From contig DATBBK010000217.1 in assembly GCA_036271035.1 (NCBI GenBank), positions 3,833 to 67,832 of the forward strand: DNA of 64,000 nucleotides, in the 5' to 3' direction. How positions within the stretch are numbered: the stretch's first letter is position 1; the number at the start of each line of letters is the position of its first letter. The notes under the pieces are model-generated. The model saw nothing but the letters and a program-made list of their open reading frames with translations. It searched no databases and was not told where the DNA came from. Positions 11,384 through 24,064 of this stretch are shown here, piece after piece. This DNA comes from Thermoanaerobaculia bacterium (GTDB lineage: Bacteria; Acidobacteriota; Thermoanaerobaculia; UBA5066; Gp7-AA6). Position numbers and translations under genes: made by a program.

Positions 11384-11408
11384 TGGCTCCTCGGGAAGGA
11401 CTCGAACC
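11384..11408 (-). repeat. 25-nt imperfect direct repeat (23/25) of the tRNA-Asn 3' end: candidate distal attachment site of a genomic island
   Basis: TGGCTCCTCGGGAAGGACTCGAACC vs tRNA-Asn 23990-24014 TGGCTCCTCAGGGAGGACTCGAACC, same orientation; no 5' acceptor partner so not a tRNA gene. Confidence 0.6.
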
Positions 11409-11508
11409 GGTCATACGGACCACGCAAATCTCTCGAGCGGGCACGGTCTGATCGACCGGGACGGCCGATCCTTCGGATCATGGAGCCTCGCGGCAGTGAA
11501 TTCGGAGA

Positions 11509-13713
11509 CTACCGCTTGAACGTCCAGCGCAGCTTCACGATGATCTGATCGGCTACGGGCGTCACGAGACCCGGTTCCGGCTCCGCGATCGTCTCCTGGA
11601 CCGAGTGCTTCCAGCCCTTGTTCCAAACGACGAAGAGATCGTCGCCCGGCGTGATCGTCCACCGGAAGCGCGCGTTCATGCCGAGACTGTCGAGCACCGA
11701 GTCGTACTGGAAGAACGCCGACAGAACGATGTAGGGATTGAAGGCGTAGACGGTCTTCAGCTGCCAGAGGCGGTCGGTGAAGTTACCCTCCCGAAGGTAG
11801 CCGTAGTCGTTCTCGAGGTTGAAGACGAGCTGCAGGTGGCCGGACCGCTCCGTCCATTTCACCGCTCCGATCAGCTGTGTCAGCCGGCCGTCGTAGAAGT
11901 CCCCGAGCCAGGCCGTGGCGCTGATCGAGAAGGGGCGAGCCGTCGAAGACTCGAGCTGGATGCGGAAGCGATTGAATTGGTAGGTGCCGACCGGGATGAC
12001 GACTCCGGGCGCGATCTCGAACGGCTGCGTCAGCCGCTCGTATTCCGGCGCGTAGTTGGCCTCGCCGTGGTCGCCCGCTTGGGTCTGGAAGTTGATTGGA
12101 GCAAGAAACGTCCGAAACGATTCGGTCTGGCCCTGGAGGTCCGTCACGAGGACCGGATTTGCCTCGAAGAAGAATTGCCGAATTCCGGAGAAGAGGCTCG
12201 TGGAAGACGGCCGGGGCTGGTACGCGAGATAGACGTTGTATTGACGGGTTCCGGGCCGAGGCAGGAACCCCAGGCCGGGATCGAGCGAGTCGCCAAACAC
12301 GTTGACCGAGCCGTTGAAGTTCCAGAGGTCGTTCGGGTACTCCGCCTTGACCCCCCAGCCACTGCGGTCGCCCGTCCCCACGTCTCCGAAGCTGCGCGTC
12401 GCCCAGAGCCCGAAGGCCAGATTCTTGTCGCCCTGGAAGGTCTCCGTCTGCCAGACGGCGTCGAGTCCGGCGAGTGAATTGCTCGTCCGGCCGTCGGGAT
12501 CGCCGTTGGTTCCGATGACGCCGACCCGCAGATTGCGGTTCACGTCGTAGGTGAAACGCCCGGCGGCCATGTTCGTCGCGGGAACGCCGAAGACGTCCCG
12601 CGTCTGGACGTCGAGCGCGCCGACGCCCCAGGCGCCTTCCCGGCCGACCGCCTTCAAGCCTGCCGTGATCGGGATGATCTGGTCGCCGAAGAGACCCACG
12701 GTGCGCGAGTAGAACGGAATGAAGACGTCCTTGATGTCGAGTCCGAAGTCGAAGAAGTTGCCGCCGTCGGTAAAGAAGGGGCGCTTCTCCGGAAAGAAGA
12801 GCGCGAAGCGCGTCAGGTTGACCTGGAGGGTGTCGGCTTCGACCTCGGCGAAGTCCGGGTTGATCGCGAGAACGCCGTCGAGCTGCGAGCTGATGTGGTA
12901 GCCGACGTCGAGGCCCGCCTGCCCCTTCGCGAAGCTGTGATCCGTGAGCTCGTCGATCTGGTACTTGCCGAGTGCGTATGGCGAGACCGTCAGCCCCCAT
13001 CCCTGGTCGAGGCAGCAGACTCCATCGAGAATTCCGGCCCGCCGCATGTCGAGCCAATTCGAGTCGAGCGTGGTGCCACTCCATCGGAGCGTGAGCTGAT
13101 CTCGGGGGACGAATCGCTGGACGTTGAACCCCCATTGCCCCGTCGAGCGGTTGAAACGAACCGTCTGGGCGGGCAGGACGATCTCGGCGGTCCAGCCGGT
13201 CGCTGTCCGCTGCGTGGCGGCGTCCCAGATCCCGTCCCAGTCGAGCGAGGCGTTCTGCGCGTTGGGATCCGAGATCAACCCGTCGAGACGAACGGCGGCG
13301 GCGTTGATCTCGAACAGATACCCGGTGCGGCGGTCGTGAAAGGTGTCGAGGACGATCGCGATCGTGTCGTCGCCCGACATATCGCCGTCGCGCTGCATCG
13401 TGTGCACCGCGATCGTCGCAGGGTTCGGATCCGTGCACGTAATCCCGAAATAGAGGTTTGACTTGTCCGCCAGGATGCGAACCTCCGTCCGGTACGGCGT
13501 CGCCTCGCCGGGCTTCGGAGACTGCTGCGTCAGGTCGGCGATCACCGCCGCCTGCTCCCACTCGGGCTCGTCGAGAGCGCCGTCGAGGCGGATCTTGCCG
13601 GCAAGGTTCGCCACGGCGACGGTTGGCGCCTCCACGGGCACCGCCTCCTGACCGGCCGGGAGCGACGCAGAGAGAAACAGCAGCGCCGCAGTCGCGATCG
13701 CTTCGCGGCGCAT
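11509..13713 (-). CDS. DUF5916 family outer-membrane protein with N-terminal CBM9-like domain
   Basis: ATG 13713 + signal peptide MRREAIATAALLFLSASLPAG; 734 aa; long beta-rich body typical of DUF5916 hydrolase-like OM proteins; starts 9 nt after the chrA stop. Confidence 0.75.
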   Translation of the reverse strand: MRREAIATAALLFLSASLPAGQEAVPVEAPTVAVANLAGKIRLDGALDEPEWEQAAVIADLTQQSPKPGEATPYRTEVRILADKSNLYFGITCTDPNPATIAVHTMQRDGDMSGDDTIAIVLDTFHDRRTGYLFEINAAAVRLDGLISDPNAQNASLDWDGIWDAATQRTATGWTAEIVLPAQTVRFNRSTGQWGFNVQRFVPRDQLTLRWSGTTLDSNWLDMRRAGILDGVCCLDQGWGLTVSPYALGKYQIDELTDHSFAKGQAGLDVGYHISSQLDGVLAINPDFAEVEADTLQVNLTRFALFFPEKRPFFTDGGNFFDFGLDIKDVFIPFYSRTVGLFGDQIIPITAGLKAVGREGAWGVGALDVQTRDVFGVPATNMAAGRFTYDVNRNLRVGVIGTNGDPDGRTSNSLAGLDAVWQTETFQGDKNLAFGLWATRSFGDVGTGDRSGWGVKAEYPNDLWNFNGSVNVFGDSLDPGLGFLPRPGTRQYNVYLAYQPRPSSTSLFSGIRQFFFEANPVLVTDLQGQTESFRTFLAPINFQTQAGDHGEANYAPEYERLTQPFEIAPGVVIPVGTYQFNRFRIQLESSTARPFSISATAWLGDFYDGRLTQLIGAVKWTERSGHLQLVFNLENDYGYLREGNFTDRLWQLKTVYAFNPYIVLSAFFQYDSVLDSLGMNARFRWTITPGDDLFVVWNKGWKHSVQETIAEPEPGLVTPVADQIIVKLRWTFKR

Positions 13714-13724
13714 CGGCGATCCCC

Positions 13725-14933
13725 CTAGCGGAGCACCCAATCCGGCCGAATCAACGGATACGCGATCAGGCCGATCAGCGCCCCCGCGAGGACCACGACT
13801 GGCTCCGGGAGTCTCTTCCACGCGAAGAGCGCGATCAGACTCGTCGCGGCGAGGGCAATCGTGAGCGCGTCGCCGATCGCGGTCTTCCCCACCAGGTACG
13901 TCGTTCCGACGAGCACGCCGACGACCGCGACCGTGATACCGCGTATGAACCCCTTGAGGTGGGGGTTCGCCGCGTGGCGCAGGAGAATCGGTGTCGCAAT
14001 GACCGTGAAGAATACCGCTGGAGCGAAGATCCCGACGGTGGCGGCCACGGCGCCGGGAAGGCCGTCCAGAAGGTAGCCGACGAAGGTGGCCGAGATGACG
14101 ACTGGCCCCGGCGAGATCATTCCAATCGCCACCGAATCGAGGAATGCCCGGTTGCCGAGCCAGTGATATTGGTCCACAACGTACGTCTTCAGGAAGGGGA
14201 CGATCACGAGCCCGCTGCCGAAAACCAGAAGTCCCGTCCTGAAGAAGAAGAAAAAGAGCTTTCCGGTAAGGCCGGCGGCCGTCGGAACCGTGCCCAGAAG
14301 AATCGGCGCCGCGAAGACGGGTACGACCCTGCCAACTGTCGGAGGACGCCCCGAGAAGAGCCAGATTCCCAGCACTCCCGCGACGATGAACATCGCGGTC
14401 AGCTCTTTCTCGACGACGACCGTCACGGCGCACGCGATCAGGAAGAACGTCCATGCAACGCGATCCCTCGCGAGGGTCCGCCGTCCCAGGTTCCAGCACG
14501 CCCTCAAGATCAGCGCGACGACGACGGGACCGACGCCGTAGAACAGGGCCCTCAGAGGCCAGCTGGCCTCGAAACGCGCATAGAGCGCCGCCGCGACGAC
14601 CACGAGGAGAAACGGCGGCAGGGCGAATGCCGCCGCGACCGCGAGGCCTCCTGCGATCCCGTGCCGGACGTATCCGCAGTAGACGCCGAGTTGGTATGCG
14701 AGAGGCCCGGGACACGCGGCCGCGATGGCAAGACCCTGGTCGTACTCGGGCTCGGTCAGCCAGCCCCGCATCTCGACGAGGTCGCGGCGCATGGAGTTGG
14801 CGAGCGCGACGGGCCCGCCGAAGCCGAGAGCTCCCAGTCGCAAGAAATAAAGCGCCATCGCCCCGAGCGATGGCTGCGCGCGCAAGGCCCCGCCGCTCCC
14901 GCCGAGCGGGACGGGTTGGATCTCCCGGCTCAC
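13725..14933 (-). CDS. chrA: chromate transporter ChrA (full-length, two CHR domains)
   Basis: 402 aa polytopic membrane protein; duplicated CHR motifs (LGALGFGGPVA..., FLRTGLLVFGSGLVIVPFL). Confidence 0.85.
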   Translation of the reverse strand: MSREIQPVPLGGSGGALRAQPSLGAMALYFLRLGALGFGGPVALANSMRRDLVEMRGWLTEPEYDQGLAIAAACPGPLAYQLGVYCGYVRHGIAGGLAVAAAFALPPFLLVVVAAALYARFEASWPLRALFYGVGPVVVALILRACWNLGRRTLARDRVAWTFFLIACAVTVVVEKELTAMFIVAGVLGIWLFSGRPPTVGRVVPVFAAPILLGTVPTAAGLTGKLFFFFFRTGLLVFGSGLVIVPFLKTYVVDQYHWLGNRAFLDSVAIGMISPGPVVISATFVGYLLDGLPGAVAATVGIFAPAVFFTVIATPILLRHAANPHLKGFIRGITVAVVGVLVGTTYLVGKTAIGDALTIALAATSLIALFAWKRLPEPVVVLAGALIGLIAYPLIRPDWVLR

Positions 14934-23548: not shown

Positions 23549-23601
23549 GATTGCCTCCGTTCTATTGTTCGAGAAACGTCGAACAGTCAATGCAATTTTT
23601 T

Positions 23602-23943
23602 TTAGACCGCCTTGGCAAGAACATCCGCGATGCCGGCAATTGCTGATTCGTTGCGCGAGTAGTACGTCCATCGCCCGCGTTTCTCGGCGTTCACGAGTCC
23701 CGCCCTTCGAAGGAGAGCCATGTGATGAGAAACAGCGGCTTTCGAGAGGCCGACCGCGACCTCGACGTCGCAGGCGCATAGCCCCTTCTCGTCGCGGGCG
23801 ATCAGGTCGCAGCATGAGCGACCCCGCGCCTTCAACAGCTCCAGAATCCGGAGTCGCGTCGGGTCGCTCAGCGCCTTGCAGATCAGAAGGACTTCGCTGC
23901 GGTCCGCCACAGTTCGAAGTTTATAGAACTGTGATCGAGCCAT
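23602..23943 (-). CDS. arsR: ArsR/SmtB family metalloregulator
   Basis: wHTH (LSDPTRLRILELL...VSHHMALLRRAGLV) and As(III)-binding Cys cluster (SCCDLIA...GLCACDV). Confidence 0.85.
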   Translation of the reverse strand: MARSQFYKLRTVADRSEVLLICKALSDPTRLRILELLKARGRSCCDLIARDEKGLCACDVEVAVGLSKAAVSHHMALLRRAGLVNAEKRGRWTYYSRNESAIAGIADVLAKAV

Positions 23944-23989
23944 GTCAAGCGGTCCGGAAACGGCGCGGCCGGAGGCGACATCACGGAAT

Positions 23990-24064
23990 TGGCTCCTCAG
24001 GGAGGACTCGAACCTCCAACCCTCCGGTTAACAGCCGGATGCTCTGCCATTGAGCTACTGAGGA
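23990..24064 (-). tRNA. tRNA-Asn (anticodon GTT), CCA encoded
   Basis: cloverleaf folded by eye: acceptor TCCTCAG/CTGAGGA, anticodon stem CCGG with loop CTGTTAA, T-arm GGAGG-TTCGAGT-CCTCC, 3' GCCA. Confidence 0.9.

Follow-up and report, generated by a model that had tools for sequence, protein, structure and literature searches.

How did genes predicted to handle chromate, arsenic and sulfite come to lie between an intact tRNA gene and a short copy of the 3' end of that same tRNA? The question is raised by a stretch of 64,000 nucleotides of contig DATBBK010000217.1 (positions 3,833 to 67,832; assembly GCA_036271035.1) from a Thermoanaerobaculia bacterium, which is referred to here as the window. 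A preliminary description, made from the letters of the sequence, had proposed that it contains a tRNA-Asn-associated resistance island of about 12.7 kb. Our analysis indicates that the interval 11384-24014 (approximately 12.6 kb) is probably a genomic island, or plasticity zone, adjoining the 3' end of the tRNA-Asn gene. It would be old, decayed and mosaic, it carries no integrase, and it is comparable to the cis-mobilizable elements (CIMEs).

The tRNA-Asn gene and the copy of its 3' end

ARAGORN and Rfam both identified two tRNA genes in the window, namely the intact tRNA-Asn and a tRNA-Met (39830-39904), and the Rfam scan of the window returned no other family. On the plus strand, positions 23990-24014 read TGGCTCCTCAGGGAGGACTCGAACC, a 25-mer that is the reverse complement of the last 25 nt of tRNA-Asn with the encoded CCA. 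When up to three mismatches were allowed, it matched the 64 kb at just two places, i.e., the tRNA gene itself and positions 11384-11408, where it lies in the same orientation with two mismatches. In 100 dinucleotide shuffles no match was obtained, so that none is expected by chance. A repeat search lengthened the pair to 30 nt at 87% identity (11379-11408 and 23985-24014). Weaker further copies were not found within the window, the best other match (17 of 25 positions) falling inside a coding sequence, and the window holds no internal attachment-site (att) copies that would mark successive accretions. The 3' 25-mer of tRNA-Met has no second copy in the window either.

The distal copy comprises the T-loop, the 3' strand of the T-stem, the 3' strand of the acceptor stem, the discriminator and the CCA. 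Over the 50 nt beyond the repeat, where the remaining part of the tRNA would sit, identity drops to 13 of 50 positions, which is the random level, leaving a sharp edge in the T-loop. The distal copy is therefore a 3' fragment and not a gene, and neither ARAGORN nor Rfam called a tRNA at 11384-11408. It is placed in a gap of 200 bp, with the DUF5916 gene ending at 11509 on one side and the YncE-like gene probably starting at 11307 on the other. The tRNA-Asn itself runs from 24064 to 23990 on the minus strand, its 3' end points into the interval, and arsR starts 46 bp past that end. The same-orientation repeat with 23 of 25 identical positions, its nature as an intergenic remnant rather than a tRNA gene, and the tRNA 3' end facing the cargo had all been proposed in the preliminary description, and all three were borne out.

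We conclude that 11384-11408 is a genuine 3' fragment of tRNA-Asn in att-like geometry, and its reading as an att scar is well supported. Both att-like copies are present and differ at 2 of 25 positions, and they are candidates for att function. No promoter-like or terminator-like site that could give the fragment a function of its own was found in it, and its fold z-score is -1.85. A putative attP would be recognized by the sequence GGTTCGAGTCCTCCCTGAGGAGCCA. Viral contigs were scanned with the degenerate att 25-mer for elements bearing an attP, and the sole return was a tRNA array of a jumbo phage.

Composition of the interval

The interval has a GC content of 65.65%, compared with 69.83% for the rest of the window. 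The 12.6-kb segment with the lowest GC (65.65%) starts at 11401, and all segments of this length that do not overlap it have at least 68.3%. An unsupervised cumulative sum (CUSUM) analysis placed the largest GC-poor segment of the 64 kb at 11267-24088, the limits given by the repeats being 11384-24064, so that its two ends lie about 120 bp and about 25 bp from the two repeat copies. The CUSUM drop was 443.7, compared with a maximum of 384.6 in 500 block permutations. GC at third codon positions (GC3) is also lower inside the interval. Elsewhere in the window two further short GC-poor patches (about 62% GC) occur at 57001-58000 and 61001-62000, one of which includes the gene of a deoxynucleoside kinase whose second codon positions are very poor in GC.

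An analogous insertion in a sister lineage

The relatives used for comparison, designated here by locus numbers (L001 and so on), are metagenomic fragments whose homologs bear the names of Thermoanaerobaculia or Acidobacteriota metagenome-assembled genomes (MAGs). They were found by scanning genome and metagenome contigs with the 154-aa protein encoded in the right flank, and by look-ups of locus context. In L007 a Ser/Thr kinase gene follows 22 bp after tRNA-Asn and the site is uninterrupted (12881-12977). In L010 (11748-14270), tRNA-Asn is followed by an insert of 2.39 kb with a single gene, by a copy of the tRNA 3' end that matches at 24 of 25 positions (14192-14216), and then by the same kinase flank.

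Alignment revealed that the L010 fragment together with its distal flank is homologous to the tRNA 3' end and flank of L007 and L013, and that what follows the intact tRNA of L010 is unrelated sequence. The repeat in L010 begins in the T-loop, as it does in the window. The comparison of L010 with L007 shows a textbook target duplication and demonstrates, for this sister lineage, an insertion that duplicated the tRNA segment seen twice in the window. The 2.39-kb insert of L010 has a GC content of 61-63% and contains no integrase. Its single gene encodes a 716-aa SLH/beta-propeller protein.

Variation among relatives and mosaic make-up

The outer flanks of the interval are syntenic among the relatives. 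On the right, the 154-aa gene, hemerythrin, YjbQ and ABC transporter genes precede tRNA-Asn in L004, L007-L011, L013 and L015, and on the left the YncE-like, Xre-RES, holin-like and PAS histidine kinase genes are found in the same arrangement in L002, L003, L017, L018 and L024. Outside the interval the window consists of core chromosome (MutS2, DnaG, RpoD, PolA, SelB, PanBC, ThiG). Between tRNA-Asn and YncE the content differs in every relative (L002, L004, L011, L017, L024). In L004, tRNA-Asn is followed by the DUF5916 and DUF1259 genes (inverted with respect to the window), a Cys-rich gene, a methyltransferase, a BNR protein, an ArsR-rhodanese gene, the coiled-coil gene cc194 and YncE. L017 carries aqpS-arsC (87% amino acid identity to that of the window) and, 25 bp later, the pair of small Cys-rich genes, then cc194 and YncE, and it is without soxCD, the chr module or a tRNA fragment. 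L002 has arsR-arsI-acr3-arsC and directly after it a 47-nt tRNA-Asn fragment (2330-2377) that extends from the anticodon loop to the CCA with 95.7% identity; these are followed by a 283-aa gene, the Cys-rich pair, DoxX-AHSA1-ArsR, cc194, YncE, DUF1259 and DUF5916. The boundary of this fragment in the anticodon loop, as opposed to the T-loop boundary of the window and L010, suggests that two integrase specificities have used tRNA-Asn. The relative nearest to an empty site is L011, with 1.36 kb between tRNA-Asn and YncE that hold one HisKA/HATPase gene; L011 either has undergone a further rearrangement at this spot or is a chimeric contig. In L011 (1380-2949), which is also the closest relative in the right flank, the YncE homolog begins only at residue 68, i.e., it is 5'-truncated.

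The modules within the interval are conserved at the nucleotide level to a degree that is close to that of the core flanks (78-87% identity). Window positions 19481-20102, which contain the Cys-rich pair, are 75-78% identical to L002, L017 and L024. For the aqpS-arsC and arsI regions the identity to L017 and L002 is 77-82%, and for DUF5916 and DUF1259 that to L004 is 74-76%. Since these modules occur at core-like divergence in the same neighborhood, they are old residents and not a recent single import. With respect to L017, soxCD (20125-21886) forms a clean indel of 1.8 kb that separates the arsC stop from the 96-aa gene and has no flanking repeats. No insertion sequence (IS) or miniature inverted-repeat transposable element (MITE)-like repeats above chance-level short repeats were found around soxCD or the chr module. 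Ortholog-level matches of DUF5916 (76-89%) are present in L004, L019, L020 and L021, in four different contexts. The module of chrB-DUF1259-chrA, pepE-OCD (ornithine cyclodeaminase) and DUF5916 recurs in an unrelated context in L021 (5139-12211), and the chr module is also found in L020 and in L019 (1-2651), in the latter next to tRNA-Lys and with chrA mostly deleted. Paralogous, operon-like arrays of YncE-DUF1259-DUF5916 occur in L002 (6241-10407), L018 (3146-7375) and L023 (51-1573). There are hints that the YncE-like, DUF1259 and DUF5916 families are functionally linked to each other and to chromate handling.

The island had been described as consisting of accessory cargo throughout. This view agrees with the GC trough and with the differing content in relatives, but it does not agree with the residence of the ars, Cys-rich and DUF5916/DUF1259 genes in the relatives, the separate nature of soxCD and the occurrence of the chr module elsewhere.

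Gene content of the interval and its flanks

The features of the interval and its immediate surroundings are listed in Table 1.

Table 1. Coordinates, strand and supporting evidence for the features at the tRNA-Asn locus of the window.
Feature	Position	Strand	Evidence or remark
Coiled-coil gene cc194	9680-10264	+	Tail to tail with YncE in the window
YncE-like beta-propeller gene, distal flank, core-like GC	10277-11307	-	Comparison with relatives
Distal att-like remnant, 25 nt, 23/25 to the tRNA-Asn 3' end	11384-11408 (extended 11379-11408)	-	Repeat pair
DUF5916/CBM9-domain secreted or outer-membrane protein, last gene of the chr module	11509-13632	-	Pfam PF19313, PF06452
ChrA chromate efflux transporter	13725-14933	-	Pfam PF02417, 258 bits; TIGR00937, 310 bits (cut-off 172)
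Small open reading frame (ORF), 56 aa	15036-15206	-	Gene called on independent contig L025
Small ORF, 117 aa, weakly PepSY-like	15203-15556	-	PepSY E=0.012, below cut-off; called on L025
DUF1259 (LppY/LpqO-like) protein	15568-16458	-	Pfam PF07485, 259 bits
ChrB-like chromate resistance regulator or sensor	16455-17441	-	Pfam ChrB_C 146 bits, ChrB_N 32 bits
Peptidase S51 (PepE-like), divergent pair with the OCD gene	17460-18176	+	Pfam
Ornithine cyclodeaminase/mu-crystallin (OCD) family enzyme	18152-19228	+	Pfam
Small secreted Cys-rich protein, 67 aa, CCDPTCC	19511-19714	-	Conserved with relatives
Small secreted Cys-rich protein, 96 aa	19772-20062	-	Conserved with relatives
Cytochrome c subunit	20125-20682	-	Pfam
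SoxC-type sulfite dehydrogenase	20675-21886	-	TIGR04555, 536 bits (cut-off 420)
Aquaglyceroporin (MIP)-LMWP arsenate reductase fusion (aqpS-arsC)	21918-23108	-	Pfam and NCBIfam
arsI/cadI	23132-23548	-	NF041414, 133 bits (cut-off 116)
arsR	23602-23943	-	HTH_5/ArsR
Proximal att-like copy	23990-24014 (extended 23985-24014)	-	Repeat pair; tRNA 3' end (23990) faces the island
tRNA-Asn (GTT), intact, encoded CCA	23990-24064	-	ARAGORN; Rfam RF00005, 71.2 bits
154-aa conserved hypothetical gene, proximal flank	24153-24617	-	Syntenic with tRNA-Asn in all relatives examined

The gene list of the preliminary description was mostly confirmed by Pfam and NCBIfam, with two corrections: the PepSY assignment is sub-threshold, and the enzyme that had been named SorA is SoxC-type. 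For this molybdenum enzyme the SorA model was rejected (145 bits against a cut-off of 600), and the SoxC-type model passes. Judging from the domain assignments, the cargo would plausibly serve chromate efflux (ChrBA), arsenic detoxification (ArsR, ArsI, aquaglyceroporin-ArsC) and sulfite oxidation (SoxCD-type). The ChrA transporter and the ChrB regulator domains expected of a ChrBA system are both present, as are the ArsR repressor and the arsenic-handling genes expected of an ars operon.

The MIP and LMWP (arsC_pI258-like) halves of the aqpS-arsC fusion both score under the equivalog cut-offs. The fusion is also encoded in L017, and L002 has separate acr3 and arsC genes instead. MIP-LMWP arsenate reductase fusions have been described in actinobacteria as well. 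The two Cys-rich proteins of 67 and 96 aa matched no Pfam family. The pair adjoins ars genes in the window, L017, L002, L024 and L004, and its products may be metal(loid)-binding accessories. As in known chromosomal ars and chr clusters, the ArsI/CadI, ChrA and SoxC-type models score here above their curated cut-offs, whereas the combination with DUF1259, DUF5916, PepE/OCD and two Cys-rich peptides corresponds to no described operon type.

At the distal end, cc194 and the YncE-like gene stand tail to tail in the window, while in eight relatives (L002-L006, L016, L017, L024) cc194 is located upstream of YncE, head to head with it. Neither a block inversion nor a circular permutation converts the order of the relatives (cc194-YncE head to head, then YncE-DUF1259-DUF5916) into that of the window. 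The YncE-like gene of the window has a 2-nt deletion near 10352 in comparison with L002, L016 and L023, which changes the reading frame some 20 codons ahead of the normal stop and lets the ORF run on, antisense through its neighbor, to 10003; the deletion is either a real frameshift or an assembly error. A pair of RES toxin and Xre-like antitoxin genes (7696-8849, minus strand) adjoins the variable region and keeps the same position in all relatives examined. At the proximal end, the junction and the ars module are reproduced at 100% identity on the independent contig L001, where the ars genes were likewise called.

Mobility genes

Pfam searches were performed on all sizeable ORFs, and no integrase was found in the interval or the window, every ORF belonging to another family or being a conserved hypothetical. 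The same scans detected no recombinase, relaxase or type IV secretion system (T4SS) domains in the interval or the window. Searches with phmmer of the six-frame ORFs of the window and 24 loci, using E. coli IntA and IntS, gave no match, two queries being of limited sensitivity. The non-coding space inside the interval amounts to 881 bp in total, with the largest gap at 282 bp, and there is therefore no room for a hidden integrase pseudogene. The lack of an integrase gene, as noted in the preliminary description, is thus upheld by Pfam, by the accounting of non-coding space and by phmmer, and the search for integrase remnants, run as phmmer together with the ORF and non-coding accounting, yielded none. 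As neither integrase nor conjugation or mobilization functions were detected, the interval is not an integrative and conjugative element (ICE) or an integrative and mobilizable element (IME).

Origin of the interval

We propose that a circular element, with an attP identical to the T-loop-to-CCA segment of tRNA-Asn, would have inserted at this site at least once by means of a site-specific recombinase, most likely a tyrosine recombinase. The insertion would have regenerated tRNA-Asn and left the partial copy of 25 nt at the distal end. Loss of the integrase, and of transfer genes if there were any, would have followed, and the content would afterward have been remodeled module by module. According to this scheme, the ars module with the Cys-rich pair and the DUF1259/DUF5916-chr module would be long-standing residents of the neighborhood, soxCD would have been gained as a separate cassette, and the distal flank would have been rearranged.

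A number of observations weigh against an island of this kind. A clean empty site, i.e., tRNA-Asn directly beside YncE, was not found in the relatives examined among genome and metagenome contigs, and the empty site predicted from the preliminary description, with tRNA-Asn adjoining the YVTN/YncE propeller gene, was thus not observed, the nearest case being L011; a pair of empty and occupied sites is seen in the sister lineage only. The sequence distal to the fragment could not be aligned with the sequence downstream of tRNA-Asn in L004, L011 or L002, bar a weak ATCAG. The classical test, in which the distal flank equals the original flank of the tRNA, therefore failed for the window, while it worked for L010 versus L007. 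The tRNA fragment sits exactly at the cc194/YncE synteny breakpoint, which is rearranged relative to the eight relatives mentioned above. Moreover, independent contigs back the proximal junction (L001) and the DUF1259 region (L025, L026), and not the DUF5916-fragment-YncE junction. The Cys-rich pair in L002 lies outside that genome's own fragment, so that the repeat in the window bounds no unit common to the relatives. With regard to composition, the tetranucleotide signature does not set the interval apart from the remainder of the window (r=0.905, a value in the range that other segments show). In the relatives, these gene modules have a low GC wherever they are present, and the low GC of the interval may thus partly be a property of the genes and not of the insertion. 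Finally, given that neither an integrase nor a remnant of one was found, the recombinase step is one that we infer. The interval coincides with the GC trough of the window, and its tetranucleotide signature is not foreign. Since the tetranucleotides are native-like and the modules GC-poor in any context, it looks as if the source was a related gene pool, or as if the island is old.

These observations also bear on the alternatives. An intact cargo island, in which one integration event brought in all 12.6 kb and nothing but the integrase was deleted afterward, would account for the single repeat pair without internal tRNA fragments, for the GC trough that spans exactly the whole interval, and for a gene content that is accessory in type. 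It is nevertheless unlikely, given that the ars genes, the Cys-rich pair and DUF5916/DUF1259 reside in the neighborhood of relatives at core-like divergence, that L017 has aqpS-arsC and, 25 bp on, the Cys-rich pair without soxCD, the chr module or the fragment, and that the Cys-rich pair of L002 is distal to the fragment there. The native-like tetranucleotide signature argues in the same direction, and relatives with subsets of the modules have already partly been seen. Somewhat less improbable, although still well behind the decayed mosaic island, is a scenario where the fragment was inherited or imported passively and the content was swapped by homologous recombination, with the tRNA and the flanks serving as homology arms. 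The integrase-less segments bounded by tRNA fragments in three genomes (the window, L002 and L010) fit such an exchange, as do the modules shuffled among relatives between conserved outer flanks, the native-like signatures, and the chr-module genes DUF5916 and DUF1259 that adjoin tRNA-Asn in L004 in inverted form. However, the precise target duplication in L010 versus L007 is typical of site-specific integration, and an original integration would still be needed to create the repeat, so that homologous exchange concerns the later history more than the origin.

The fragment could also be the remnant of a second tRNA-Asn gene that has lost its 5' two-thirds, the two genes having once flanked the variable region. 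In some bacteria tRNA-Asn genes are multicopy and clustered, as in the enterobacterial asn tRNA clusters, and Klebsiella has four copies within 16.4 kb (PMC6202445); the two substitutions in the fragment would also be in keeping with such a remnant. We regard this as very unlikely, because no second copy is present in the fetched loci of any relative examined, the similarity stops abruptly at the T-loop rather than fading, and the end point is the same as that of the duplication in L010, a case in which the homology of the flanks proves an insertion. An explanation by chance similarity or by an assembly chimera is hardly credible: the distal junction is backed by the contig of the window only and T-arm sequences are conserved motifs, yet none of the 100 shuffles gave a second match, the match includes the acceptor strand specific to tRNA-Asn, an imperfect repeat of 25 nt cannot lead an assembler astray, the change-points in composition coincide with the repeats, and the proximal junction is identical in L001. 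A different and speculative view, to which we attach a low probability, is that the T-loop-to-CCA segment of tRNA-Asn is a site that has repeatedly captured integrase-less cassettes, from one gene up to resistance modules of several genes, which would be inserted, stacked and reshuffled by a recombinase acting in trans. The locus would then be integron-like or CIME-like and would not derive from decayed self-sufficient elements. Repeat-bounded segments occur at the three tRNA-Asn loci named above, and an integrase at none of about ten loci.

Relation to known systems

The family of ICEKp and the Yersinia high-pathogenicity island (HPI) resembles the interval in the tRNA-Asn target, the position of the island 3' of the tRNA, the short repeat of the tRNA 3' end and the variable cargo. 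ICEKp and HPI have a P4-like integrase at the tRNA-proximal end, 17-bp repeats, xis and a T4SS/mob module, and integrase-less derivatives of this type next to tRNA-Asn are known (PMC6202445). In contrast, the proximal gene in the window is arsR, no match to IntA or IntS was obtained, the repeat is of 25 nt, phylum and cargo are unrelated, and no homology was detected. CIMEs are decayed ICEs or IMEs that keep attL and attR and are without integration and transfer genes (PMC5704250). The window shares with them the att-like ends, the cargo and the lack of detected recombinase or transfer genes, and decay followed by later accretion would also account for its mosaic. It differs from them in that its ends are not identical (2 of 25 positions), no internal att copies are present, and no ICE or IME of matching specificity was found as a partner.

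The ssrA islands of Dehalococcoides are arranged in tandem, with many 20-bp repeats of the ssrA 3' end and an integration module with the serine recombinase DsiB, and some of them are thought to have been fixed and ameliorated (PMC3146451). Like the interval studied here, they form a low-GC region that breaks synteny downstream of a small RNA gene, with a 3'-end repeat and an insertion point in the T-loop. Unlike them, the window has one repeat pair, no integration module, and a tRNA in place of the transfer-messenger RNA (tmRNA). The repeats of the window and L010 run from the T-loop to the CCA, and that of L002 starts in the anticodon loop, so that both classical crossover sublocations are represented. 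The T-loop and the anticodon loop were reportedly described by Williams, in Nucleic Acids Res in 2002, as the integration sublocations of tyrosine integrases in tRNA genes. In the window there is no integrase to assign to a subfamily.

Significance

Integrase-less island remnants flanked by a tRNA are common and well understood, and no new mechanism is shown here. The integrase-less, repeat-bounded inserts in three genomes constitute a small lead, which would gain weight only with the discovery of a trans-acting recombinase. Our analysis identifies tRNA-Asn as a recurrent site of integration and plasticity in uncultured soil Thermoanaerobaculia, and places the chromate, arsenic and sulfite genes of this lineage in a shuffled accessory region. 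These findings are useful for the annotation of MAGs and for the reading of metal(loid) resistance in soil Acidobacteriota.

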